In this document: positions 7,869-46,704 of the stretch, one piece after another
Position numbering within the stretch: the first letter of the stretch is position 1
How the letters are laid out: the number at the start of each line of letters is the position of its first letter
NCBI GenBank assembly: GCA_035455205.1
Contig: DATIFM010000008.1
Span: forward strand, 13,146-77,145
Source: Candidatus Bilamarchaeum sp.
GTDB lineage: Archaea > Micrarchaeota > Micrarchaeia > Anstonellales > Bilamarchaeaceae
Reading direction: 5' to 3'
Length of the DNA stretch: 64,000 nt
Made by a program: the position numbers and the translations under genes
Notes under the pieces: generated by a model
What the model saw: only the letters and a program-made list of their open reading frames with translations
Databases searched by the model: none
Told to the model about the DNA's origin: nothing

Positions 7869-9527
7869 ATGCTCAGGCACGACATAGTGATAGTCGGGGC
7901 GGGCCTTGCCGGGCTCCGGGCGGCGATAGAGCTCAACAGGAAGGCCGACTGCGCCATAATATGCAAGACCTACCCCAACCTCGCGCATTCGACTGAGGCG
8001 CAGGGCGGCATAAATGCAGCCATCGACCCCGACGACAGCTGGCAGGACCACGCCTACGACACCTGCTACGGGGGAGATTACCTGAACGACCAGGACGCGG
8101 TCGAGGCGCTCTGCTCGGACGCGCCCCGCGTGATAGAGGAGCTCGTCGGCTATGGCGTGAATTTCAACCGCACCAAAAGCGGCATGATAGCCCAGAGGGC
8201 GTTCGGCGCGCAGAAGTTCAACCGCACGTGCTTCGCGGCCGACCGGACCGGCCATGCCCTGCTCCATTCCCTCTACAGGCAGGCCATCTCCCTCGGCGTC
8301 ACGATATACAACGAGTGGCAGGCGGTTTCCCTGGTGAAGAAGGGGGGGCGCGTCAGCGGAATCGTCGCCCTCGACATGGCAGACGGGGAGTTCAAGGCCG
8401 TTGCGGCAAAGGCGGTGATACTCGCGTCCGGGGGGGCCGGGAGAGTGTACGGGAAGACCACGAACCCCGAGAACACGGGCGACGGGATTGCGATCGCGTA
8501 CAATGCGGGCGCGCCCATCATGGACATGGAGATGGTCCAGTTCCACCCGACGACATTGCGCGGCTCGAACAAGCTGCTCTCCGAGGCAGCCCGCGGCGAG
8601 GGGGCATACCTAATCAACGCCAAGGGCGAGCGGTTCATGAAAAGGTACGCGCCGGACAAGATGGAGCTCGCTTCGCGCGACGTCGTATCGCGCGCAGAGG
8701 CGACCGAGATAATGGAGGGGCGGGGGGTCCTCGGGGACTCGGTGTACCTGGATTTCCGGCACCTCGAGCCGGAATTGATTAACACCCGCCTGCCGGACAT
8801 CAGGAAGAACGCGCTCGAACTCGTCGGCATAGACATAACGAAGGAGCCCGTGCCTGTCCAGCCGGGCCAGCACTACACGATGGCAGGAATTTCGACCGAC
8901 ACCGAATGCAAGACCCAGATACAGGGCCTCTTTGCCGCCGGGGAGTGCGCCTGCATCAGCGTCCACGGGGCGAACAGGCTGGGAGGAAACTCCCTCATGG
9001 AAACGTTCGTGTTCGGGCGGAGGGCCGCAGCCAGCGCTCTCAGATTTATCAAGGGCAAGGCGTTCGAGCCGATAGGCGAGACGGTGACAAAAATCGAGGA
9101 GGAGCGCGCCGCGAGATGGATGAAGAACGAGGGCAGGCTGGTCCGCCATTTGAGATTTGAGCTCGGGAAAGCCATGGACGACTTTGCCGGCCCGTTCCGC
9201 GACGGGGCCATGCTCGGAAAGGCGAGGGAGGCGGTTGCGAGGCTGAAGAAGGAGCCGATAGCCGTGAGCGAGCACAGCCACGTCTTCAACGCGGAACTGC
9301 AGGCCGCATACGAGCTGTGGTTCATGCTCGACCTAGCGCAGTGCACGGTCGCAAGCGCGATGGACAGGAAGGAGAGCCGGGGCGCGCACAGCAGGACCGA
9401 CTTCCCGAAAAGGGACGACAGGAACTGGCTGAAGCACATCCTCTGCACGAAGGCCGAGGACGGCCCGGCGCTGTCCTACAGGCCGGTGAGCATAACGAGG
9501 TGGAAGCCGGTCGAAAGGCACTATTAG
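7869..9527 (+). CDS. succinate dehydrogenase/fumarate reductase flavoprotein-family FAD oxidoreductase (SdhA/FrdA/TfrA/NadB-like)
   Basis: N-terminal FAD dinucleotide motif IVIVGAGLAGLRAA, the HSTEAQGG segment with a His at the covalent-FAD position, and the HYTMAGI active-site motif. No Fe-S partner subunit gene is adjacent. Confidence 0.8.
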   Translation: MLRHDIVIVGAGLAGLRAAIELNRKADCAIICKTYPNLAHSTEAQGGINAAIDPDDSWQDHAYDTCYGGDYLNDQDAVEALCSDAPRVIEELVGYGVNFNRTKSGMIAQRAFGAQKFNRTCFAADRTGHALLHSLYRQAISLGVTIYNEWQAVSLVKKGGRVSGIVALDMADGEFKAVAAKAVILASGGAGRVYGKTTNPENTGDGIAIAYNAGAPIMDMEMVQFHPTTLRGSNKLLSEAARGEGAYLINAKGERFMKRYAPDKMELASRDVVSRAEATEIMEGRGVLGDSVYLDFRHLEPELINTRLPDIRKNALELVGIDITKEPVPVQPGQHYTMAGISTDTECKTQIQGLFAAGECACISVHGANRLGGNSLMETFVFGRRAAASALRFIKGKAFEPIGETVTKIEEERAARWMKNEGRLVRHLRFELGKAMDDFAGPFRDGAMLGKAREAVARLKKEPIAVSEHSHVFNAELQAAYELWFMLDLAQCTVASAMDRKESRGAHSRTDFPKRDDRNWLKHILCTKAEDGPALSYRPVSITRWKPVERHY

Positions 9528-9604
9528 CTTGCTCGCCCCCCAGGGCTCGCCACGGATTTGGCACTATTCATCATTTTTAAGCACTAATATACCAATTGAT
9601 AGCC

Positions 9605-10489
9605 ATGCACGCCCGCAGGCTCCCCTCTCCGGAAGAAAGGCTCAGGGCCAATTTCGCAAGGGCAGCGGTCCTGCTGTCATATATATCATGCAGGGAGGAG
9701 AAGGCGAAGTTTTCCGGGACGGAGCTTGCCAAAGATGATATTGCATTGCCGCCGAAGCCGGATTCCGCCCTGCCCGCGATAGGGAGGCTGGACCGGAGCC
9801 CCCGGAGCCTGCCGGGTGCGTGCCCGGATGGGATGGCCGAGCACAGCAATTTCTGCATGGACCGGTTCGAGGGCCGCCTAGTATATATAGAGGACGGCAG
9901 GCCCCACCCGCATTTTTTGAGGCCGGTGGATTTCACGAAAGTCAGGGCCCGGTCCGATTTCGGTGCCTTCCCTCAGGGATACCTGAGCCAGCTGGAATCC
10001 GCAACCGTCTGCTCCAACGCCGGAAAGCGCCTTTGCACCCTCAGGGAGTGGATGGAGGCCTGCACTGCGGGGGGAAAGAGGAGGTTCCCGTATGGCGAGG
10101 GCGCAAGAGGCAACATATGCAACTCGGGAAAGGGCCCGCACGTGATGAGCCTCTACCATGGCGGCAATCATCCGGGCCACTACTGGGACAACAATCAGTT
10201 CAACGACCCGATTCTGAACGTGACGCACGGCTACCTTGCAAGGACGGGGATGCACCCGGAGTGCGTGAGCGAGAGGGGCGAATCCGACCTCACAGGAAAT
10301 TTGCACGAGTGGGTGAGCGATGTAGGGGAAAACGGGATGGGGACTTTTGCAGGGAGCTGCTACTCGGACAACGACATGCCGTGCTCGTATTACGCGCAGG
10401 TGCATGCGAGGCAGTATCATGATTATTCGACTGGAGTCCGCTGCTGCAGCGGCAAGGAGGGAAAAAATGAGAAGAATCGCGTTCACTAG
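9605..10489 (+). CDS. FGE-sulfatase (formylglycine-generating enzyme-like) domain protein, probable lipoprotein, paralog 1
   Basis: GNLHEWVSD matches the GNxWEW hallmark of the FGE-sulfatase fold; Cys-rich; N-terminal hydrophobic segment ends in LSYISC (lipobox-like). ATG at 9605 preferred over the track's TTG at 9596. Confidence 0.6.
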   Translation: MHARRLPSPEERLRANFARAAVLLSYISCREEKAKFSGTELAKDDIALPPKPDSALPAIGRLDRSPRSLPGACPDGMAEHSNFCMDRFEGRLVYIEDGRPHPHFLRPVDFTKVRARSDFGAFPQGYLSQLESATVCSNAGKRLCTLREWMEACTAGGKRRFPYGEGARGNICNSGKGPHVMSLYHGGNHPGHYWDNNQFNDPILNVTHGYLARTGMHPECVSERGESDLTGNLHEWVSDVGENGMGTFAGSCYSDNDMPCSYYAQVHARQYHDYSTGVRCCSGKEGKNEKNRVH

Positions 10490-11402
10490 CATGGTTTTGC
10501 TCTCGTGCAACCGGGAGAAGGCTTACGAGGCGCCGCAGGGCACGCTGCCCGAGCCCTCGCGCACTTACGCGCCGATGGCGGAAGCGCCTATTGCGAGGCC
10601 GCCTGCGTCCCCGGCGCCGAAAAGGACTGCATCCGGAGCTTCCGCGGAGAAGCCGGAGGCCGGCACAAGCGCGGCAGCGGGTTCATCCTCGGATGCAGGG
10701 CCTGCCCTGGCCCTGAAACTGGGGACGGGTGCAGGATGCCCCGAAGGCATGGCGCGTACCGGGAGCTTCTGCATCGACCGGTTCGAGATAGCGCTGGAGG
10801 GGAAGGATGGCACGAGGTTCCGCCACAACGTTCATCCGCCAGAAGGCATGGACGGCCTCTCAGCCATATCCATCCCTGAAGTCAGCCCGCAGGGCCACCT
10901 CTCCCAGCCGCAGGCCATGAAGGCGTGCCAGAACGCCGGCAAGAGGCTCTGCACCTCGGACGAATGGGAGGCGGCATGCAAAGGGAAAGCGGGAAATCCG
11001 TTCCCCTACGGCGCGGCCATGGACGCGTCGGCCTGCAACGTCGACAAGAGGTCGCCCCACATCCTCGACTATTATTTCCCCGGCACGCCGCACCTCAAGA
11101 GGACAGGGAAGGAATTCAACGACCCGATGCTCCTCCTCGACCCGGCATACCAGACGAAAGCCGGCCGCATGCCTCTCTGCGTCACTCCCGAAGGCGTGTA
11201 CGACATGGACGGAAACATGAGCGAATGGGTGAGCGACTCCGAATCGAGGGGCGGGGTCACTTACGGCACCTTCCGCGGGGCGCCATTCTCGGGATACGCG
11301 AAGGAGGGGTGCGCGAGGAAAACCACAGCCCACGATGCAAGATATTACGATTACTCCACGGGGGCAAGGTGCTGCGCGGACATGCGGGGACGGGGTTTAT
11401 AA
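10467..11402 (+). CDS. FGE-sulfatase domain lipoprotein, paralog 2
   Basis: Start ATG at 10467 preceded by AGGAGGG; signal peptide MRRIAFTSMVLLSC (lipobox LLSC); GNMSEWVSD motif; clearly paralogous to the upstream gene (shared CxDRFE, QxxACxNAGKRLCT, EWxxAC blocks). Overlaps the upstream gene by about 23 nt. Confidence 0.65.
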   Translation: MRRIAFTSMVLLSCNREKAYEAPQGTLPEPSRTYAPMAEAPIARPPASPAPKRTASGASAEKPEAGTSAAAGSSSDAGPALALKLGTGAGCPEGMARTGSFCIDRFEIALEGKDGTRFRHNVHPPEGMDGLSAISIPEVSPQGHLSQPQAMKACQNAGKRLCTSDEWEAACKGKAGNPFPYGAAMDASACNVDKRSPHILDYYFPGTPHLKRTGKEFNDPMLLLDPAYQTKAGRMPLCVTPEGVYDMDGNMSEWVSDSESRGGVTYGTFRGAPFSGYAKEGCARKTTAHDARYYDYSTGARCCADMRGRGL

Positions 11403-11426
11403 ATACGAATATACACTTATTATAAC

Positions 11427-12254
11427 ATGCTTGAATTGAACAGGCCCCCCGGCAGGCGCGAGGAGAGGAACCTCATCGCCGGCCGCTACTGCCTCATCGA
11501 GGAGGTGGGGAGGGGGAGGCTCGGCTCCGTGCACAAGGCCCTCGACTGCGAGAGCGGGGGCACGGTCGCATTGAAGTTCGGCCTTGGGGACATGGGCTTT
11601 GCCCGCACTTCCCTCATGAACGAGGCAAGCGCGCTCGCCAGGGTGTCCCACGAAGGGGTGGCCGGCCTAAGGGGCGCCGGCGAGTCGGAAATGGGCCCTT
11701 TCATAGTCATGGATTATGTGCACGGACTGAACCTGAGGCAGCTCCTCAAAAGCGGGGGCATGCCTTCGGGGATGGCCATGAGGGCCATGGGCACGGTTTT
11801 GGGCGCCCTCGAATCCAGCCACCAGAGCGGCGTCGTCCACCGGGACATAAAGCCGAAGAACGTAATGATAGGGACGGACGGGAAGGCGAGGCTCGTGGAT
11901 TTCGGATTCGCCCGGGTGAGCGGGGAGAGCGATTACACCGAGAAGTTCACCCACGCCTTCGGCAACCCGATTTACAGCCCGCCCGAGGACCTCCGGGGAA
12001 ACGCGGACCCGAGGGTGGACATCTACTCGGCAGGCGTGATGCTTTACGAGCTCATGATAAACAGGAACAGGTTCTACTTCGTCAGCGCAATGAAGCTTCT
12101 CGAGCTCCGGACGAGCATCGGGAGGGCTTTCGGAGGGCGGAACGTGCCCGCAGACGCCCTCGAGATAGCGCACAAGGCGACGGAAAGGGACCCGGAAATG
12201 CGGTTCCAGAGCGCAAGGGCGATGAGGGAGGCCCTCGAGAACATCATCGTGTAG
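11427..12254 (+). CDS. Hanks-type serine/threonine protein kinase (kinase domain only, cytoplasmic)
   Basis: GRGRLGSV glycine loop, VALK lysine, HRDIKPKN catalytic loop, DFGFA and SPPE motifs. TATA-like TTTATAAA about 25 nt upstream. Confidence 0.85.
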   Translation: MLELNRPPGRREERNLIAGRYCLIEEVGRGRLGSVHKALDCESGGTVALKFGLGDMGFARTSLMNEASALARVSHEGVAGLRGAGESEMGPFIVMDYVHGLNLRQLLKSGGMPSGMAMRAMGTVLGALESSHQSGVVHRDIKPKNVMIGTDGKARLVDFGFARVSGESDYTEKFTHAFGNPIYSPPEDLRGNADPRVDIYSAGVMLYELMINRNRFYFVSAMKLLELRTSIGRAFGGRNVPADALEIAHKATERDPEMRFQSARAMREALENIIV

Positions 12255-12260
12255 GGTTTG

Positions 12261-12770
12261 TCATTGGGTGAGCCGCTTCATGCAGGAGGCGGCAAGGGAA
12301 ACCAGCGAAGAGTCGGCCATATCCTTCATGCCGGAAACCGTCTCGGCTATCCCCATCAGGACGATTTTTGAAAGGTCGCTGAATTCCGCGTCATGCGAGG
12401 CCCTGCGCAATATGTGCCCCAGCATCATCCGCGAAAGGGCAGGGTCGGCGCCGTCAACCGTGATTATGGCCATCGACACGAACATGCACGCGGCTATCTT
12501 CTCCTCCGCGGTCCTTTCCACGAAAGCCCCGAGCGCGGCCGCGGCGGAGCGGCGGTCGAGGGCGAGCGTCTGCGCGAAACCCTCTATGTCGAAATCGGTG
12601 TAGACGCTGTTCGGGTCCGAGCCGCCCTCGAAATGGGACATCGCCAGGGACACCAGGCGCTCGAGGGCGCCGGCGGGCGAGGAGCCGAGGGACTCGAGGA
12701 GAGCCTCGTGCCTGGAGCGCGCCTTCCTGCCGCGCATGTCTATTTCGAGGACCTTGCGCCCGTAAGCCAT
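12261..12770 (-). CDS. hypothetical protein (169 aa)
   Basis: ORF only; no motif recognised. Its antisense strand generates the spurious N-terminal extension of track ORF 12393..14543. Confidence 0.35.
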   Translation of the reverse strand: MAYGRKVLEIDMRGRKARSRHEALLESLGSSPAGALERLVSLAMSHFEGGSDPNSVYTDFDIEGFAQTLALDRRSAAAALGAFVERTAEEKIAACMFVSMAIITVDGADPALSRMMLGHILRRASHDAEFSDLSKIVLMGIAETVSGMKDMADSSLVSLAASCMKRLTQ

Positions 12771-12905
12771 GGATTGAAGGGGAAGCGCCGGTTTTTAGAT
12801 TCGAGCAGGAAAAAAGCGAAAATTTTCCGTGTACCGCACGCGGATTGCGGGAAAAATTGCAAAATTTCCAAACTCTTAAAAATCTTAAACGCGTGTGTGG
12901 TGCTC

Positions 12906-14543
12906 ATGAGAAACTTGATTATTTTGCTGGTTGCTTCGGTGATACTGATAAGCGGGTGCACGCAGGAGTGCCCCCAGGATGCCAAGCCGGTCTGCGGCTC
13001 TAACGGCGTCACTTACAAGAACGCCTGCCTCGCCCAGAAGGCCAACGCCACTGTCGTGAGCCAGGGCGCGTGCCCGGCAACGGCAGCGTGCACGGACTCC
13101 GACGGCGGAAAGGACATATTCACCGCAGGAAGCGTCACCGAGGGGGGTGCAGCGTCCGACGACATGTGCGCCAGCCCCGACAGCGTGCTCGAGAGGTTCT
13201 GCAAGGACTCCTCCGCGCTGTCTGAGAACCTGCCCTGCCCGTCAGGCTACCAGTGCGACGGCGGCAAATGCGTCGAAGTCGCCTGCTCTGACAGCGACGG
13301 CGGGATAAAGGAGGACGTGAAGGGGAGCGTAACCGCGGGAGGCAAGACCTCCGGCGACGAATGCGCCGACTCCGGCTCGGTCAAGGAATTCTACTGCGAC
13401 GGAGGAAAGGCGAACTCCAAGGAAATAGTGTGCGCCTCGGGAATGTCCTGCGTTAACGGCGCGTGCGTCAAGACGCTGTGCACCGACTCCGACGGCGGGA
13501 AGGACCCGGCGATAAAGGGCACCGCGAAGGCCGGAAGCGTCTCGCAGACGGACTCCTGCGACGGCAACGCCCTCACGGAATACTTCTGCGACGGCGACTC
13601 GGTTAAATCCGAGAAGGCCAACTGCCCGAGCGGCTACAGCTGCACGGACGGCAAGTGCGCAAAGAGCGTGTGCACGGACTCCGACGGCGGAAAGACCGCG
13701 GACGTGAAGGGCACCGTATCTTACGGGACCGCATCCCAGACGGACAGCTGCTACAGCAACACGCAGGTGCTCGAGTATTTCTGCGCCTCGGACGACAGCT
13801 ATACATCCGAGAAGATGAGCTGCGGGACGAACAGGGAATGCTTCGACGGCAAGTGCAGGAACGTCGAGTGCGCAGTCGACCTCCAGATAGTCGACGTGAG
13901 CGACAAGAGGGTCGAGCTCAAGGCCTTCGACGACTCGGACGAGCTGAAGCTCTACGAGAACGAAGTCGTTGAGATAAACGACGGCATGTTCCTCATGCTG
14001 GACACGATAAGCGGCAACCAGACGAGCCTGAAGCTGTTCAGGACGTTCGCGAAGCTGCAGGACAATGACGACGAGTGCAGCACGGACATCAGCGCAGGGG
14101 ACACCGAGAACGACCTCTGCGGAAGGAACACGGGCGACGTCGAGATAGGCAGCGTCAATGACAGCGGCGGATACGCGTTCCTCACCCTGCAGGAATACTT
14201 CGCAACGCAGTATTACTCGCAGGAGGGGAGCATAAAGAACTGGACCGACAACGTCCAGTGCCAGGACGACGAGGAGTCGTTCGACACGTATACGGCAGAC
14301 TTCTACCCGCGCCTCGACACGGCCTCATCGGGCCTCAACCTCGACGGAAGGAAGCTGAAGCTGTTCAGCCTCGACTCCAGGATAATCGAGGTCACCGGGG
14401 ACAGTGTCACACTCGACATTGACGGCGACGACGTCGAGCTGCAGGAGAGCGACACCTTCGAGTACCGCAACGAGCGGTACAGGGTGACGTCGCTCGAATT
14501 CGACGACGGCGGCCTCACGAGGATGGAAATCGAGCTCGACTGA
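12906..14543 (+). CDS. secreted lipoprotein with N-terminal Kazal-like domain, four tandem 6-Cys repeat modules and an acidic C-terminal domain
   Basis: Signal peptide MRNLIILLVASVILISGC (lipobox); Kazal hallmark PVCGSNGVTYKNAC; repeats beginning CTDSDGGKD / CSDSDGGIK at about 65-aa spacing; C-terminal about 230 aa rich in Asp/Glu. True start is ATG 12906, not the track's 12393. Confidence 0.7.
   Translation: MRNLIILLVASVILISGCTQECPQDAKPVCGSNGVTYKNACLAQKANATVVSQGACPATAACTDSDGGKDIFTAGSVTEGGAASDDMCASPDSVLERFCKDSSALSENLPCPSGYQCDGGKCVEVACSDSDGGIKEDVKGSVTAGGKTSGDECADSGSVKEFYCDGGKANSKEIVCASGMSCVNGACVKTLCTDSDGGKDPAIKGTAKAGSVSQTDSCDGNALTEYFCDGDSVKSEKANCPSGYSCTDGKCAKSVCTDSDGGKTADVKGTVSYGTASQTDSCYSNTQVLEYFCASDDSYTSEKMSCGTNRECFDGKCRNVECAVDLQIVDVSDKRVELKAFDDSDELKLYENEVVEINDGMFLMLDTISGNQTSLKLFRTFAKLQDNDDECSTDISAGDTENDLCGRNTGDVEIGSVNDSGGYAFLTLQEYFATQYYSQEGSIKNWTDNVQCQDDEESFDTYTADFYPRLDTASSGLNLDGRKLKLFSLDSRIIEVTGDSVTLDIDGDDVELQESDTFEYRNERYRVTSLEFDDGGLTRMEIELD
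13089..13875 (+). repeat. four tandem about 195-nt coding repeats (units start near 13089, 13284, 13479, 13671)
   Basis: DNA-level recurrence of tgcacggactccgacggcgg(a/g)aagga / tgctctgacagcgacggcggg; each unit encodes C-x-DSDGG-...-C-...-(F/Y)C-...-C-(P/A)SG(Y/M)xCxxGxC. Confidence 0.7.
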
Positions 14544-14576
14544 TTTTTTTTATTTTTATCATTTTCGGGGTCAATA

Positions 14577-14828
14577 ATGGACAGGCCGGCGATATACACC
14601 GAGAACAAGACGGTCATAGACCTCGGCGGCAGCCTGAGCTGGTTCGCCTGCATAATCCTTGCGATTCTGATTATCCATTTCAGCTGCGGCGCGGGCACGG
14701 CCACAGGCTACGTGGGCGAAATCTGCGCAAGGGGCTTCGGGATACAGGACTATCTCGGCCTCATATGCTGCGCACCGCTCTACCTGCTTGCCGTAATACT
14801 CGCAAGCGGCGGCCTCAGGATCTGGTAA
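14577..14828 (+). CDS. small membrane protein (83 aa, 2 TM), hypothetical
   Basis: Hydrophobic segments FACIILAILIIHF and LICCAPLYLLAVILASGG. Confidence 0.3.
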   Translation: MDRPAIYTENKTVIDLGGSLSWFACIILAILIIHFSCGAGTATGYVGEICARGFGIQDYLGLICCAPLYLLAVILASGGLRIW

Positions 14829-16053
14829 ACTTTTCGAGTTCTCTGAGGAGGAACGGGTCCAGCCTCGCAATCAAATGCTCCCGGACCTTGGCATCCTTGA
14901 AGCGGTAAGAGAGCACGGGCTCTCCCGTGTCCGTGACGAAGCGCGCCTTCCACTTGTTCTTGTATACGGTGAGCCCGGTCGTCCTGAAGGGGCCGCCGAG
15001 GCCGAAATCGAGCATCGCCACCCCTTTTTCGCACGCGTGCGATACGGAGAAATAATAGAGGGCCGAGCCGACGCCTGAGCGCATCAGCGCCCTGCTCCCT
15101 TCGAGCACGCCGATTGCCTTGAGCGCCAGAACCCGGCCGGGGCATTCTTGAACGAGGACTCCGCCGAGGGTGGCGTCGCCCCGGCAGGCAAAGAGAAGGT
15201 AACCGGCCCGGAACAGGGACTCCAGCTCGGAGAAAGTCGGCCTGACGGCGTTGCTCTCATGCATGGCCTCGAGCGTCGGCAGGTGCATGGATTTGTAGAA
15301 AAGGACGAAGTCATCCCGGTCCCGCGATATCCGGGGCATGAACCCTGCCTTCCGTATCTTGTTGATGTCGCTCCGGGCAGAGTGCGGGAGGCCCTTTTCG
15401 TATTCTGCGAGCGTGGCGGGTATGTCGATGATGGCGCGCACCGAGGACGGGGTGGCAAAATCGCCCCCTCCTGCGCCGGACTCCGGGACGGAGAGGATTT
15501 CGAGGTCCGCATCCCGGGCATCTTCGCGGCCTGCAGGCACGGCTCGCGCGGGGACGTCGAAGAGGGTTTCCGAAAGCAGGGCCGCCTTGTGCCCGGGAGT
15601 CCTGAGGAGCACAGTAAGGGGCAGGCCGCCGCACCGCCCCTTCGCGACATATGAGCGCGGGAAAAGCCGCGACTTGAGGCGGTACGCGGCCCCTGCAAGC
15701 ACAGGGAAGGAATTCCTCAGGGCAGAAAGGAGCGGCTCGGAGATTCCGGATCGGGGCCGCCCGAGGGCGTGAAGCCGGAGCCGGGCGGCGGCAGGCGCGG
15801 GGATGCCGCAGGAGACGGCGAGTCGCCCGGCCCTGTGCTCGCCGGCGAGTGAGGCAAGGGCGCATGCAAGTGCGTCCTCGTCGAAGCCGTCCGGAAATTC
15901 AAGGTTGGAGAGGGTGCCTCCTGCGAAGTCGAAAGTGAGCGCGTCGCGCTCGTCCCTTTTCACGGAAAAACGCCGGGCGCCCGGACCGCCGGTGCGGATC
16001 AGCTCCCGCCCCGGAGGCCCGCGCTCGTCGCCGACGAATCTGGCATATTGCAT
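14815..16053 (-). CDS. hypothetical protein with C-terminal FemAB/BioF2-like GNAT-fold acyltransferase domain
   Basis: Start placed at MQYARFVG (ATG 16053..16051); C-terminal pattern ALYYFSVSHACEKGVAMLDFGLGG...GLTVYKNKWKAR resembles the FemAB/CelD-type acyltransferase fold. The track's longer ORF (to 16482) is an antisense overlap with the leuA-like gene. Confidence 0.4.
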   Translation of the reverse strand: MQYARFVGDERGPPGRELIRTGGPGARRFSVKRDERDALTFDFAGGTLSNLEFPDGFDEDALACALASLAGEHRAGRLAVSCGIPAPAAARLRLHALGRPRSGISEPLLSALRNSFPVLAGAAYRLKSRLFPRSYVAKGRCGGLPLTVLLRTPGHKAALLSETLFDVPARAVPAGREDARDADLEILSVPESGAGGGDFATPSSVRAIIDIPATLAEYEKGLPHSARSDINKIRKAGFMPRISRDRDDFVLFYKSMHLPTLEAMHESNAVRPTFSELESLFRAGYLLFACRGDATLGGVLVQECPGRVLALKAIGVLEGSRALMRSGVGSALYYFSVSHACEKGVAMLDFGLGGPFRTTGLTVYKNKWKARFVTDTGEPVLSYRFKDAKVREHLIARLDPFLLRELEKFTRS

Positions 16054-16147
16054 AGTCGCATCCCGCGTGATAGTATCCCGTGAGAAGCTTAAAAGGCGCG
16101 CAGATATGTTTTTATTGCTCGGATGATATGTGAGAGCGGCGGGAACA

Positions 16148-17221
16148 ATGGCTTTGATGATACAGGACACGACGCTGAGGGAGGGACAGCAGACTGCGTT
16201 CGTGAGCTTCACCAGGGAGCAGAAGCTGGAGCTTGCCGCCATGCTCTCGGATTTCGGGGTGGACTTCATCGACATCATGCCCGCGGCCTCGCCGAGGGAG
16301 CAGGCGATGAACAAGGAGCTTAACGGCATGGGCCTGCGGCCGAATGTCGTCTCGCTCTGCCGCACCATGAAGGAAGACATAGACAAGGCAATCGAGGCCG
16401 ACGCGAAATGGGTCGGAGTGTTCCAGGGGACTTCCCAGATACACCTCGAGTCCAAGCTCAGGATGGACGAGGATGCCAGCATAAGGAAGATAGAGGAGGC
16501 GGTGTCCTACGCCGCATCGCGCGGCCTGAAGGCCCGATTCGGCCTCGAGGACGCCTCGAGGACATCATACGATTATTTGATAAGGACGTGCCGGGCCGCG
16601 AGGGACGCGGGCGCGTGCCGGATAACGCTCGCGGACACGCTCGGGGCGATGCGCCCGGACAGGATGAAGGAGCTTGTCGCGAAAGTGAAGGCCGAGGCCG
16701 GCCTCCCGATAGACGTCCATTGCCACAATGATTTGGGCCTCGCGCTCGCGAACTCGCTTGCCGCCTACGAGGCAGGGGCCTCCTGCGTGCACACGACGAT
16801 AAACGGCTGCGGCGAGAGGGTCGGGATAGTGAAGCTCGCCGAGCTCGTGATGGCGATGGAAATCCTCTATGGGGAGAGGCTGAACGTGAAAAAGGAGATG
16901 CTGTATGCGCTCTCCGAGAAGTTCTCGGAGTTCAGCGGCATCCCCACGTGCCCGCTCATGCCTGTCGTCGGCAAAAACGCGTTCAGGCACAAGAGCGGCA
17001 TCCATACCGCCGCGCTCCTGCGCGACAAGAGGACGTACGAGCTTTTCGAGCCGCAAAGCGTAGGCAACAGGCGAAGGTACATACTCGGCGAATACACCGG
17101 AAAGGCGCTCATGAAGCACCTCTCGGACAGCCTCCACATGAACCTGAGCGACGAGCAGATACAGAGGGAGCTGCGCAAGATAAAGGGAAAGGGCGGAGAC
17201 ATATTCGACTTCCGTGATTGA
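16148..17221 (+). CDS. 2-isopropylmalate / (R)-citramalate / homocitrate synthase family (short form without regulatory domain)
   Basis: LREGQQ motif (QDTTLREGQQTAFV), HMGL-like TIM barrel, HxH metal site (VHCHNDLG). 358 aa, so the LeuA C-terminal regulatory domain is absent. Confidence 0.85.
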   Translation: MALMIQDTTLREGQQTAFVSFTREQKLELAAMLSDFGVDFIDIMPAASPREQAMNKELNGMGLRPNVVSLCRTMKEDIDKAIEADAKWVGVFQGTSQIHLESKLRMDEDASIRKIEEAVSYAASRGLKARFGLEDASRTSYDYLIRTCRAARDAGACRITLADTLGAMRPDRMKELVAKVKAEAGLPIDVHCHNDLGLALANSLAAYEAGASCVHTTINGCGERVGIVKLAELVMAMEILYGERLNVKKEMLYALSEKFSEFSGIPTCPLMPVVGKNAFRHKSGIHTAALLRDKRTYELFEPQSVGNRRRYILGEYTGKALMKHLSDSLHMNLSDEQIQRELRKIKGKGGDIFDFRD

Positions 17222-46579: not shown

Positions 46580-46704
46580 GCCTCGGTAGCTCAGTCGGTA
46601 GAGCGGCTGACTGTTATCTTTTGGGAATGAACAGCCCGTTTTGGGGCGCCTTTTCCCAAAAGGCGCACATCAGCAGGCCGGAAGTTCAAATCTTCCCCGG
46701 GGCG
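46580..46704 (+). tRNA. tRNA-Asn (anticodon GUU) with a 52-nt canonical-position intron (46617..46668)
   Basis: GCCTCGGTAGCTCAGTCGGTAGAGCGGCTGACTGTTA [intron] ATCAGCAGGCCGGAAGTTCAAATCTTCCCCGGGGCG. Clean cloverleaf: 7-bp acceptor, D-arm GCTC/GAGC, anticodon stem GCTGA/TCAGC, T-arm GGAAG-TTCAAAT-CTTCC; intron between positions 37 and 38. Confidence 0.8.

Follow-up and report, generated by a model that had tools for sequence, protein, structure and literature searches.

FGE-like surface lipoproteins, a soluble Hanks-type kinase and a Kazal-repeat lipoprotein encoded side by side in a Micrarchaeota genome

The window analysed here, a stretch of 64,000 nucleotides, stems from a Micrarchaeota MAG, that is, from a tiny symbiotic DPANN archaeon; an earlier interpretation made without database searches (the sequence-only reading) had correctly called it archaeal, as is borne out by an intron-containing tRNA within the window and by identical proteins deposited under Candidatus Bilamarchaeum sp. 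The locus of interest is flanked by genes of housekeeping metabolism (GltB-like, SdhA-like, homocitrate synthase, aconitase, and IDH) and encodes two FGE-like lipoproteins (FGE1 and FGE2), a Hanks-type Ser/Thr kinase, a 169-aa protein on the opposite strand, and a Kazal-domain lipoprotein. The four genes that the sequence-only reading had described all exist, at coordinates that agree to within 1 base, and the profile searches it had proposed recovered FGE-sulfatase in both FGE-like lipoproteins, Pkinase, and Kazal_1.

FGE1 (9605..10489, + strand, 294 aa, lipobox Cys29), the "type 1" paralog, has an FGE-sulfatase/C-type-lectin-like fold, and FGE2 (10467..11402, + strand, 311 aa, lipobox Cys14) combines a disordered linker of ~75 aa with an FGE-like domain at residues ~88-305. 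Both exceed the 23.3-bit cut-off of Pfam FGE-sulfatase PF03781 (27.8 bits for FGE1, 41.6 bits for FGE2), and their 38% identity across 220 aa (E=1e-44) identifies them as paralogs. FGE2 represents the "type 2" paralog, the type widespread in Micrarchaeota. FGE1 shares 51% identity with P0031, the FGE gene of the related genome L012, retains all 10 Cys that are invariant in the family, and groups with P0031 and P0035 in an NJ tree; the two paralogs, anciently diverged, probably differ in specificity. Their N-termini are lipobox-like (MHARR...AAVLLSYIS-C29 in FGE1; MRRIAFTSMVLLS-C14 in FGE2), so the proposal of two paralogous FGE-sulfatase lipobox genes stands, whereas their reported overlap depends on the start chosen for FGE2: it amounts to 23 nt if FGE2 begins at the ATG preceded by GGAGG and disappears in the public gene call, which places the start 8 codons further on. 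Reading of the sequence reveals a TATA-like element, TTTTTAAG (9574..9581, + strand), 24-31 nt before the ATG of FGE1, which is likely the promoter of a leaderless FGE1-FGE2 transcript, as well as the Shine-Dalgarno-like GGAGG (10456..10460, + strand) 6 nt before the ATG of FGE2. As a Shine-Dalgarno sequence precedes FGE2 only and TATA-like elements occur at -31..-24 of FGE1, the kinase gene, and the Kazal gene, FGE2 is, to judge by these signals, an internal operon gene. A sequence homologous to the FGE1 upstream region, CATT(T/C)TTAAACACT..., is conserved in the three close relatives L007, L009, and L012.

The kinase (11427..12254, + strand, 275 aa) is a stand-alone, soluble, catalytically intact protein of the Hanks type (Pkinase, 131 bits; PknB-type kinase domain, 185 bits), in whose translation all Hanks motifs are present (GRGRLGSV, VALK, HRDIKPKN, DFG, SPPE, and DIYSAG) and a search for hydrophobic or TM segments found none. 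A TATA-like element, TTTATAAATA (11396..11405, + strand), overlaps the FGE2 stop codon and provides the kinase with its own promoter, the TATA-like TTTATAAA lying 24-31 nt upstream of the kinase ATG; the 24-nt spacer between TATA and ATG differs by 1 base in L009, though the proteins are only ~50% identical. The sequence-only description of a minimal cytoplasmic kinase with its own TATA-like element is therefore well founded. Beyond the kinase lies a gene for a conserved protein of 169 aa (12261..12770, - strand), whose transcription diverges from that of the Kazal gene; the small opposite-strand ORF noticed at this position is a real, conserved gene.

The last gene (12906..14543, + strand) encodes an acidic lipoprotein of 545 aa with 33 Cys in all, which starts MRNLIILLVASVILISG-C18 (lipobox ISG-C18) and is preceded, 24-31 nt upstream of its ATG, by a TATA-like CTTAAAAA read from the sequence (12875..12882, + strand). 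Its Kazal-like domain (nt 12969-13073; Kazal_1, 28.2 bits) and four 6-Cys repeats of 64-66 aa each (nt 13089-13871) had been recognized beforehand and were located as described, and a C-terminal beta domain of 223 aa (nt 13872-14540), absent from the sequence-only description, completes the protein (AF2 pLDDT 88.5; all on the + strand). The family is Micrarchaeota-wide, with ~120 full-length orthologs of ~545 aa in which G17-C18 and nearly all Cys are invariant. Given this phylum-wide distribution and, in GCA_964647855.1, a distance of ~270 kb between the Kazal gene and the FGE-like gene, the protein, earlier proposed as a possible extracellular partner or protease regulator, cannot count as a dedicated partner of the FGE-like lipoproteins; it may instead be an independent, phylum-wide core surface lipoprotein, with a structural or adhesive role and/or as a protease shield, whose gene would merely be near the FGE-like genes in this clade.

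The AF2 model of FGE2 (pLDDT 81 overall, >90 in the domain) and Foldseek matches to FGE, CalU17, ToxD, Mtd, EgtB, PvdO, and PorK confirm the FGE-like fold. A homolog search with FGE2 returned 969 homologs, those of Micrarchaeota being the closest. FGE1 and FGE2 belong to a lipoprotein family with 10 invariant Cys and an invariant D-x2-G-N-x2-E-W segment, whose members are mostly from Polyangia. Since, of 40 homologs, at least 90% likewise retain the lipobox Cys, these proteins are most readily understood as extracytoplasmic, disulfide-bonded lipoproteins; lipoproteins and the lipidation enzyme AliA have been reported for DPANN (PMC12462473). FGE1 and FGE2 would accordingly be exported and lipid-modified at the lipobox Cys, and a flexible linker of ~40 aa (FGE1) or ~75 aa (FGE2) would tether the domain, an FGE/C-type-lectin fold rich in disulfides that contains the 10 invariant Cys and is likely a ligand binder, to the outside of the membrane.

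With FGE itself (SUMF1; PDB 1Y1E, 5NXL, 6MUJ), the proteins share the overall fold, the central segment 'AGKRL(P/C)T..EWE', and the D-x2-G-N-x2-E-W segment; they differ in a shortened N-terminal beta-hairpin region (the Pfam match covers profile positions ~83-197 of 255), in the 10 family-specific Cys, in the lipid anchor, and above all in the active site. Whether the catalytic Cys pair and copper site of true FGE are retained had been raised as a question, and profile alignments show them to be lost: the Cys-x4-Cys copper site is missing, and FGE2 has a single Cys in the loop that holds Cys336/Cys341 of human FGE, opposite CalU17's own Cys in the CalU17 alignment. We take this single Cys to occupy the position of the structural Cys346 of human FGE. 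Identity of FGE1 and FGE2 as formylglycine-generating enzymes is thereby ruled out, and the loss makes the domain most likely a putative ligand-binding module; the label "non-catalytic" is nonetheless provisional, as FGE-fold proteins devoid of the Cys pair can be enzymes (PvdO, CalU17, and ToxD). CLec/FGE folds are established binding and sensor scaffolds (Mtd, TaqVP, STAND and DGR sensors), and PorK/GldK of the T9SS ring, itself a lipoprotein, Mtd/TaqVP of DGRs, and STAND sensors likewise use an FGE-like scaffold without FGE chemistry. These matches, structural and by PDB profile, hold at the fold level (E 1e-4 to 1e-6, 14-22% identity), and the settings differ: there are no T9SS genes here, no reverse transcriptase or template/variable repeat of a DGR, and no STAND NTPase.

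Conservation of the gene neighbourhood, which the sequence-only reading had made a test of its proposal, is genuine but narrow. A kinase gene adjoins an FGE-like gene in three of the four genomes of one narrow clade, namely in the window, in L009 (one FGE2-type gene and a kinase), and in L012, where an FGE1-type gene and two kinase genes are joined by 4-nt ATGA overlaps, an arrangement that by its sequence is one of translational coupling. L007, which has the closest relative of FGE2, possesses the FGE, 169-aa, and Kazal genes without a kinase, and the flanks examined in seven other DPANN genomes with an FGE-like gene contain no kinase, Kazal, or 169-aa gene. The make-up of the locus thus varies even within the clade (one or two FGE genes; zero, one, one, and two kinases; the Kazal gene in three of four genomes). 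All archaeal adjacencies trace to a single ancestral locus that immediately follows the same SdhA-like gene, which marks them as one evolutionary event. Even so, the adjacency spans three of four genomes and both types of FGE paralog and comes with the coupling in L012, which exceeds what would be expected of neutral neighbours.

On this evidence, we consider it about an even chance (probability roughly 0.5) that we are dealing with a lineage-specific cluster, whose genes have separate promoters and mostly encode cell-surface proteins, rather than with a demonstrable single system. A tie between the kinase and the neighbouring surface lipoproteins is plausible and unproven, the evidence for one system being thin, and a regulatory link between them is a tentative proposition at best. 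Within the lineage-specific cluster, the kinase may be envisaged as a cytoplasmic enzyme, active to judge from its motifs and equipped with its own promoter, whose gene was inserted or retained beside that of the FGE-like protein in some members of the clade.

The sequence-only reading had favoured a split receptor kinase, in which the FGE-like lipoproteins form the extracytoplasmic ligand-binding half and the Hanks kinase the cytoplasmic half, functionally equivalent to bacterial kinase-TM-FGE fusions. Its premise is documented: receptor-type Ser/Thr kinases that carry an FGE-sulfatase domain at the C-terminus occur in bacteria, for example in the "Proteo1" family of a bacterial STK atlas preprint (bioRxiv 10.1101/2025.01.12.632604), and in them, as here, a Hanks kinase meets an FGE/CLec domain presumed to sense or bind. 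Unlike these fusions, the archaeal locus has separate genes with separate promoters, a kinase without a TM helix, and, as its FGE-like part, a lipoprotein from a separate 10-Cys subfamily. A closer parallel is found in Polyangiaceae and Labilithrix, where the gene of a tail-anchored STK immediately precedes, on the same strand, that of a lipoprotein from the 10-Cys family of FGE1 and FGE2 (five loci: L027, L044, L074, L082, and L090; FGE parts 53-93% identical to one another and 37-44% identical to FGE2). We know of no description of this pair. Its gene order is the reverse of the archaeal one, and its kinase carries a C-terminal TM anchor with a ~200-aa linker and ~5 residues outside the membrane, all lacking in the archaeal kinase, to which it is only 26-27% identical; the association hence arose independently, and it keeps the idea of a kinase-FGE-like link alive. 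Kinase genes also occupy six of 150 slots next to FGE-like family genes, against ~1.6 expected from flank density, although this bacterial excess boils down to about two independent events.

Domains, lipoprotein topology, and recurrent adjacency of the split-receptor proposal therefore hold, but its signalling route does not. The archaeal kinases of the clade (275-294 aa, kinase domain only) have no TM segment, anchor, or docking domain, any link to the lipoproteins would require a membrane-spanning relay, and the gene cluster encodes no membrane protein. Outside the clade, the kinases most closely related are free-standing and bacterial (Nocardioides and others, 39-40% identity), one of them adjoining an ABC-2 transporter, and PF03781 occurs in none of the kinase's best 120 matches; hence a transmembrane signal has no physical route, and nothing points to a split fusion. 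With the conserved promoter of the kinase, its absence from L007 and the seven other DPANN loci, and the single ancestral origin of the archaeal cases, a split receptor is unlikely.

Those same free-standing relatives would suit a kinase acquired horizontally, possibly antiviral (PD-T4-6-like), that sits beside the FGE-like gene by chance and is functionally unlinked to it. Its kinase-only architecture, its patchy presence and varying copy number among close relatives (orthologs at ~50% identity in two relatives only), and the PD-T4-6 models as its best PADLOC matches, which reach 196 bits across the whole length of the model, are in keeping with such a history. These models are generic for Hanks kinases, however, and PADLOC likewise tags as PD-T4-6 a kinase found in every S. 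thermophilus genome (PMC11514479). PADLOC gave no specific defence signal in the region and no further defence genes near the kinase, the flanks are housekeeping genes, and three genomes preserve its position right behind an FGE-like gene, all of which renders a chance neighbour quite improbable. Least credible is that the FGE-like lipoproteins are extracytoplasmic SUMF1/EgtB/PvdO enzymes, i.e., oxidative maturases for secreted proteins or other substrates outside the cell, possibly among them the Kazal-repeat protein encoded nearby: relatives are publicly annotated as 'SUMF1/EgtB/PvdO family nonheme iron enzyme', the enzymes CalU17, FGE, ToxD, and PvdO rank among the top structural matches, polar residues D104, E107, N191, H289, and R301 are invariant, and the 33-Cys protein is encoded near FGE-like genes in three genomes, but the copper-binding Cys pair is missing, Pfam/NCBIfam searches found no EgtB/OvoA-type DinB or metal-binding partner domain, most invariant residues are Cys or motifs common to non-enzymatic CLec folds, and Kazal-family genes of many genomes lie in unrelated surroundings, far from FGE-like genes.

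The 169-aa protein, for which Pfam, NCBIfam, and PADLOC yielded no match and PDB no meaningful one, is Micrarchaeota-restricted (13 matches among 1.84 billion representatives); synteny of its gene extends to L007 and L009, and L009 and L012 have paralogs at other sites. Residues ~22-59 of the Kazal protein superpose on non-classical Kazal inhibitors (the leech-derived tryptase inhibitor LDTI, infestin, and silk protease inhibitor 2), with which they have the core CP...PVCGS(D/N)G.TY.N.C in common; the match to LDTI (PDB 1AN1/1LDT/2KMO) has a TM of 0.76-0.90 and 41-46% identity. Unlike those inhibitors, the domain has four of the six Kazal Cys, the C1-C5 pair being missing, and where LDTI-type proteins are small secreted inhibitors, it forms the N-terminal, lipid-anchored end of a large protein with several domains. 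Its P1 residue is Gln, a position at which family members vary (D, Q, S, K, E).

The cluster at 9605-14543 is best read as a group of surface-lipoprotein genes with a loosely associated kinase, a reading to which we assign a probability of about 0.5. The four genes described from sequence alone were all recovered, with their Pfam domains, motifs, lipoboxes and repeats in place. The genome is that of a Micrarchaeota (DPANN) archaeon; deposited proteins of Candidatus Bilamarchaeum sp., on a 239-kb contig, are identical to the kinase and to the Kazal protein. Downstream of an SdhA/NadB-like flavoprotein gene (7869-9527, + strand, 552 aa), FGE1 (9605-10489, +, 294 aa, lipobox Cys29) and FGE2 (10467-11402, +, 311 aa) encode paralogous lipoproteins with the FGE-sulfatase fold and overlap by 23 nt; they are followed by the Hanks-type kinase gene (11427-12254, +, 275 aa), by a gene of 169 aa on the strand opposite to its neighbors (12261-12770, -), and by the Kazal/Cys-repeat lipoprotein gene (12906-14543, +, 545 aa, lipobox Cys18). 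In the window, whose GC content is approximately 60%, a TATA-like A/T-rich octamer lies exactly 24-31 nt 5' of the ATG of FGE1, of the kinase gene and of the Kazal gene, and no Shine-Dalgarno sequence is read before any of these three, a combination that is usual for leaderless archaeal transcripts. FGE2 alone, with GGAGG 6 nt upstream, looks like an internal operon gene.

The kinase, as judged from its translation, is active-looking, soluble and separately promoted. It matches the Pfam Pkinase profile at 131 bits over positions 3-258 of 263, and the minimal cytoplasmic Hanks kinase with its own TATA-like element that had been proposed stands in full: the motifs GRGRLGSV, VALK, HRDIKPKN, DFG, SPPE and DIYSAG are complete, the octamer is 24-31 nt upstream, and neither the window protein nor its orthologs in two clade relatives (L009 and L012) contain a TM or other hydrophobic segment. 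The 24-nt spacer between FGE2 and the kinase gene, TTTATAAATACGA(A/T)TATACACTTATTATAAC (window 11403-11426; L009 3835-3858), contains the TATA-like element and is the same in both genomes bar one base, the flanking proteins being 50-56% identical; this conserved spacer is the predicted promoter of the kinase. As a non-coding element it is unusually conserved between the two genomes. A defense system was also considered and set aside. PADLOC models for PD-T4-6 match the kinase at up to 196 bits, yet they also label a housekeeping kinase of every S. thermophilus genome (PMC11514479), so the match is not specific evidence of a defense role; the PADLOC matches are to generic kinase models only, and no defense genes were found among the neighboring genes scanned.

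Conservation of the neighborhood was partial. Besides a contig of the same organism (L011, 100% identity to the window protein), the order SdhA, FGE-like, kinase, 169-aa gene (-), Kazal recurs in L009 (FGE2 56% identical), and L007 (FGE2 60%) has the same order with the kinase absent. In L012 (FGE1 51%) the order is SdhA, a 476-aa gene (-), FGE-like, two kinases, a lipoprotein gene (-) and an ABC transporter; here the FGE-like gene and both kinases are joined by 4-nt overlaps, and the Kazal gene is absent. The SdhA-like anchor gene, 72-84% identical, is common to all four clade genomes, and the archaeal FGE-like/kinase loci thus represent one ancestral locus. FGE2-type genes occur in other contexts in seven more DPANN genomes (L001/2, L003-5, L006=L013, L014, L015, L016 and L077), in some of them after ProRS and a 343-aa gene of unknown function, and the kinase, Kazal and 169-aa genes are all missing from the fetched flanks of these seven loci. 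The expected synteny of FGE-like and kinase genes therefore held in L009 and L012 but failed in L007 and the seven other DPANN loci; the adjacency is seen at a single locus of one clade, one member of which has lost it.

These observations bear directly on the split sensor-kinase proposed in the sequence-only reading, in which the FGE-like lipoproteins and the kinase would form one pathway. The recurrence of the adjacency in L009 and L012 and the overlapping genes of L012 are consistent with that model, and the narrow distribution of the adjacency, the kinase's own conserved promoter and the soluble kinase speak against it; we regard it as unlikely, and any coupling of the FGE-like proteins to the kinase is putative. 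A kinase, a TM helix and an FGE domain on one polypeptide are not encountered here, where the genes are separate, and PF03781 appears in none of the 120 best matches of the kinase, which gives no support to the splitting of a once-fused kinase-FGE gene.

Bacteria, where the paired kinase is predicted to be membrane-anchored, supply the best evidence that a kinase can act together with this lipoprotein family. Sixteen kinase genes were found in the flanks of 75 bacterial loci (1.05 Mb), and six of these directly adjoin the FGE-like gene, against approximately 1.6 expected from flank density, although the six represent only about two independent events. Five of the six form one orthologous pair in Polyangia (L027 4792-7025, L044 6400-8636, L074 4848-7089, L082 6193-8678 and L090 5604-8057), in which a kinase of 488-557 aa has its sole clear TM helix at the very C-terminal end (…AAGAAAWFTHLIPHQ, with approximately five residues outside). 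Behind it on the same strand comes an FGE-like lipoprotein of the 10-Cys family, whose gene overlaps that of the kinase or lies no more than about 120 nt away. Across the range from Polyangiaceae to Labilithrix, identity between the lipoprotein parts is 53-93%. A fusion of kinase and FGE domains, suspected in Polyangia from tblastn spacing, resolved upon ORF tracing into two adjacent genes. The pair has the appearance of a bipartite receptor kinase; we know of no description of a tail-anchored kinase paired with an FGE-like lipoprotein.

A broader proposal, which we hold to be doubtful, is that FGE-like lipoproteins and Hanks kinases constitute a recurrent bipartite means of sensing the outside with at least two origins: one in Polyangia, where a tail-anchored kinase is paired with a lipoprotein, and one in the Micrarchaeota clade, where the lipoprotein is paired with a soluble kinase. 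Ligands on the host surface or in the environment would be sensed in this episymbiotic archaeon by the two paralogous lipoproteins, and the signal would reach the kinase via a putative membrane partner. If true, no earlier description of an extracytoplasmic sensor-kinase pathway would exist for a DPANN archaeon; a genuine kinase link would also mean that the kinase-TM-FGE receptor design common in bacteria is workable as separate parts and would supply archaeal Hanks kinases with an extracellular input.

The kinase might instead be unlinked to its neighbors and horizontally acquired, an explanation that we consider improbable. Close orthologs (50% identity) are confined to two relatives, and beyond these identity falls to 39-40%, in bacterial kinases that stand alone and are approximately 280-330 aa long (Nocardioides and others), as such an origin would have it; against it stands the retention of the kinase directly behind the FGE-like gene in three genomes. 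Stand-alone minimal Hanks kinases related to the window kinase also adjoin ABC_tran and ABC2_membrane genes in L012 (5306-9462, Micrarchaeota) and in a bacterial locus (L095 5357-7843), the bacterial relative directly following an ABC-2 transporter gene, and this pattern may be a separate kinase-transporter association.

Turning to the preferred reading of a surface-lipoprotein cluster, the FGE-sulfatase fold predicted for both lipoproteins was confirmed by Pfam (PF03781, 27.8 bits for FGE1 and 41.6 for FGE2; cut-off 23.3). The two share 38% identity over 220 residues, and in a rough NJ tree the Micrarchaeota sequences group together, with an FGE2-type clade sister to a smaller FGE1-type clade (FGE1, P0031 from L012 and a further sequence, P0035); because they fall in separate clades, FGE1 and FGE2 are two old paralogs and not a recent duplication. 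A search with FGE2 returned 969 relatives, the nearest named ones from Micrarchaeota, and in one-genome-per-species data the family numbers more than 584 members, overwhelmingly from Polyangia/Myxococcota, plus a small archaeal clade. Polyangia are predatory or social, and the occurrence of this 10-Cys family in both Micrarchaeota and Polyangia likely reflects inter-domain transfer. An alignment of 40 sequences comprises a hydrophobic N-terminal stretch, a Cys (at least 90% conserved), a low-complexity linker and a domain with ten invariant Cys, marked by the motifs CPEGM, FC(I/M)DR(F/Y/W)E, PQG(Y/H), C.NAGKRLC(T/S)..EW..AC.G, FNDP, D..GN(L/M).EW and RCC.

The AF2 model of the FGE-like domain (pLDDT >90) matched FGE, CalU17, ToxD, Mtd, TaqVP, EgtB/OvsA, PvdO and PorK in Foldseek, the FGE structures at E about 1e-7 and probability 1.00. 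True FGE binds Cu(I) through its catalytic pair Cys336/Cys341 (human numbering, C-x4-C). That site is not retained: FGE1 has two Cys eight residues apart, and FGE2 has one Cys in the equivalent loop (profile alignments with human FGE and CalU17), which lines up with CalU17's own Cys in the CalU17 alignment and which we take to be the position of the structural Cys346 of human FGE. Neither protein is thus a true formylglycine-generating enzyme (FGE/SUMF1), the fold being present and C-x4-C missing, and the scanned ORFs of the 64-kb window include no sulfatase. That the FGE-like proteins are an extracytoplasmic enzyme of another kind, as their matches to EgtB/OvsA and PvdO might suggest, is very improbable given an active-site region unlike that of FGE. 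As the 10-Cys subfamily lacks the catalytic site, nothing here supports its public annotation as "SUMF1/EgtB/PvdO family nonheme iron enzyme", which is probably wrong; should the kinase link prove false, this misnaming would be the narrower lesson. Mtd and TaqVP are variable proteins of diversity-generating retroelements (DGRs). A C-type-lectin-like (CLec) DGR target was also considered, and it was rejected: only paralog and Cys-repeat similarity was found at 9000-15000, with no template/variable repeats, and no reverse transcriptase was found among the scanned neighboring genes. The FGE-like proteins are probably lipoproteins of the cell surface whose active-site region is not that of FGE; by analogy with CLec/FGE sensor domains, they may bind ligands. 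In more distant Micrarchaeota, large surface-type proteins follow the FGE-like gene (L003 8980-12957; L001/L002 9167-end), namely a 1325-aa NosD/beta-helix protein and a YadA_head-like fragment, which fits a cell-surface role for the family.

The Kazal protein, with the Kazal-like domain (Kazal_1 28.2 bits, Kazal_2 26.3 bits, Pfam) and four 6-Cys repeats foreseen for it, begins with a strong signal peptide ending ISG-C18, continues through the Kazal-like domain and repeats of 64-66 aa (C-[ST]-D-S-D-G-G-x19-C-x10-C-x11/12-C-x5-C-x4-C), and ends in a 223-aa acidic beta-rich domain. The repeats and C-terminal domain found no Pfam or PDB sequence match, even when searched alone against Pfam, and whole-chain Foldseek returned meaningless large-protein matches except for the Kazal domain. 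Residues 22-59 resemble the non-classical Kazal inhibitor LDTI (41-46% identity, TM 0.76-0.90), and the CP..PVCG..G.TY.N.C core and the fold of Kazal-type inhibitors are present, but only four of the six cysteines are (C22, C30, C41 and C56). Classical Kazal disulfides pair C1-C5, C2-C4 and C3-C6; here the C5 position is Lys45, and the sole upstream Cys is lipobox Cys18. The P1 residue (C2+2) is Gln, and 40 orthologs include D in 15, Q in 7, S in 6, K in 2 and E in 2; Kazal reactive sites are typically variable, an acidic P1 being unusual. Among the matches listed are approximately 120 full-length orthologs (about 545 aa, 35-74% identity), all named members of which belong to Micrarchaeota or other DPANN, with nearly all 33 cysteines invariant, as is G17-C18. 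A role as specific partner of the FGE-like genes was rejected on this wide distribution and on placement; the sequence-only reading had named the protein as a possible extracellular partner. In GCA_964647855.1 the Kazal and FGE-like genes share a contig but are approximately 270 kb apart, and in another genome the context of the Kazal gene is again unrelated. The Kazal protein is thus a core surface protein of the phylum in its own right.

Signal peptides ending in a lipobox ([LVI][ASTVI][GAS]C at the end of the N-terminal signal peptide) were indeed predicted for all three lipoproteins: LISG-C18 in the Kazal protein, its G17-C18 invariant in 40 orthologs, and the lipobox-like ends LLS-C14 in FGE2 and YIS-C29 in FGE1, whose Cys is at least 90% conserved after the hydrophobic stretch and whose h-regions are short (9-12 aa). 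Archaeal lipidation consists of an archaeol thioether on the Cys and is AliA-dependent in Haloferax. We infer that the cluster lipoproteins may be lipid-anchored, with reports of lipoproteins and AliA in DPANN as support (PMC12462473).

The arrangement as a whole combines known kinds, namely FGE-fold binding modules, Hanks kinases and Kazal domains, and is not demonstrably a new system. To our knowledge almost nothing is known of how DPANN archaea sense or bind the hosts to which they live attached; the locus provides concrete candidates for these functions in two CLec/FGE-fold lipoproteins and a phylum-wide, highly conserved Kazal/Cys-repeat surface lipoprotein.

The 169-aa gene is real, its family being confined to Micrarchaeota with 13 matches among 1.84 billion representatives, and searches of Pfam, PDB and PADLOC gave no relatives of known function. 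The family is alpha-helical, with the conserved core EEK..ACMFVS.AI..IN.TDP and an invariant C-terminal Cys, and paralogs are present in L009 and L012. A membrane relay was discarded, as the hydrophobic stretch (Kyte-Doolittle threshold) occurs in the window copy and not in orthologs, and so was an N-terminal ribbon-helix-helix, the N-terminus being non-conserved and matching nothing in PDB or Pfam. Downstream of the cluster, a long minus-strand ORF (14815-16482) overlaps the start of a homocitrate-synthase-like gene (16130-17221, +), so its true start probably lies downstream; its sole match is sub-threshold and FemAB/GNAT-like (Acetyltransf_6). ARAGORN in its bacterial setting reported zero tRNAs for the window, as against one by Rfam, at 46580-46704 (+, 125 nt, 59 bits), which presumably contains an intron.
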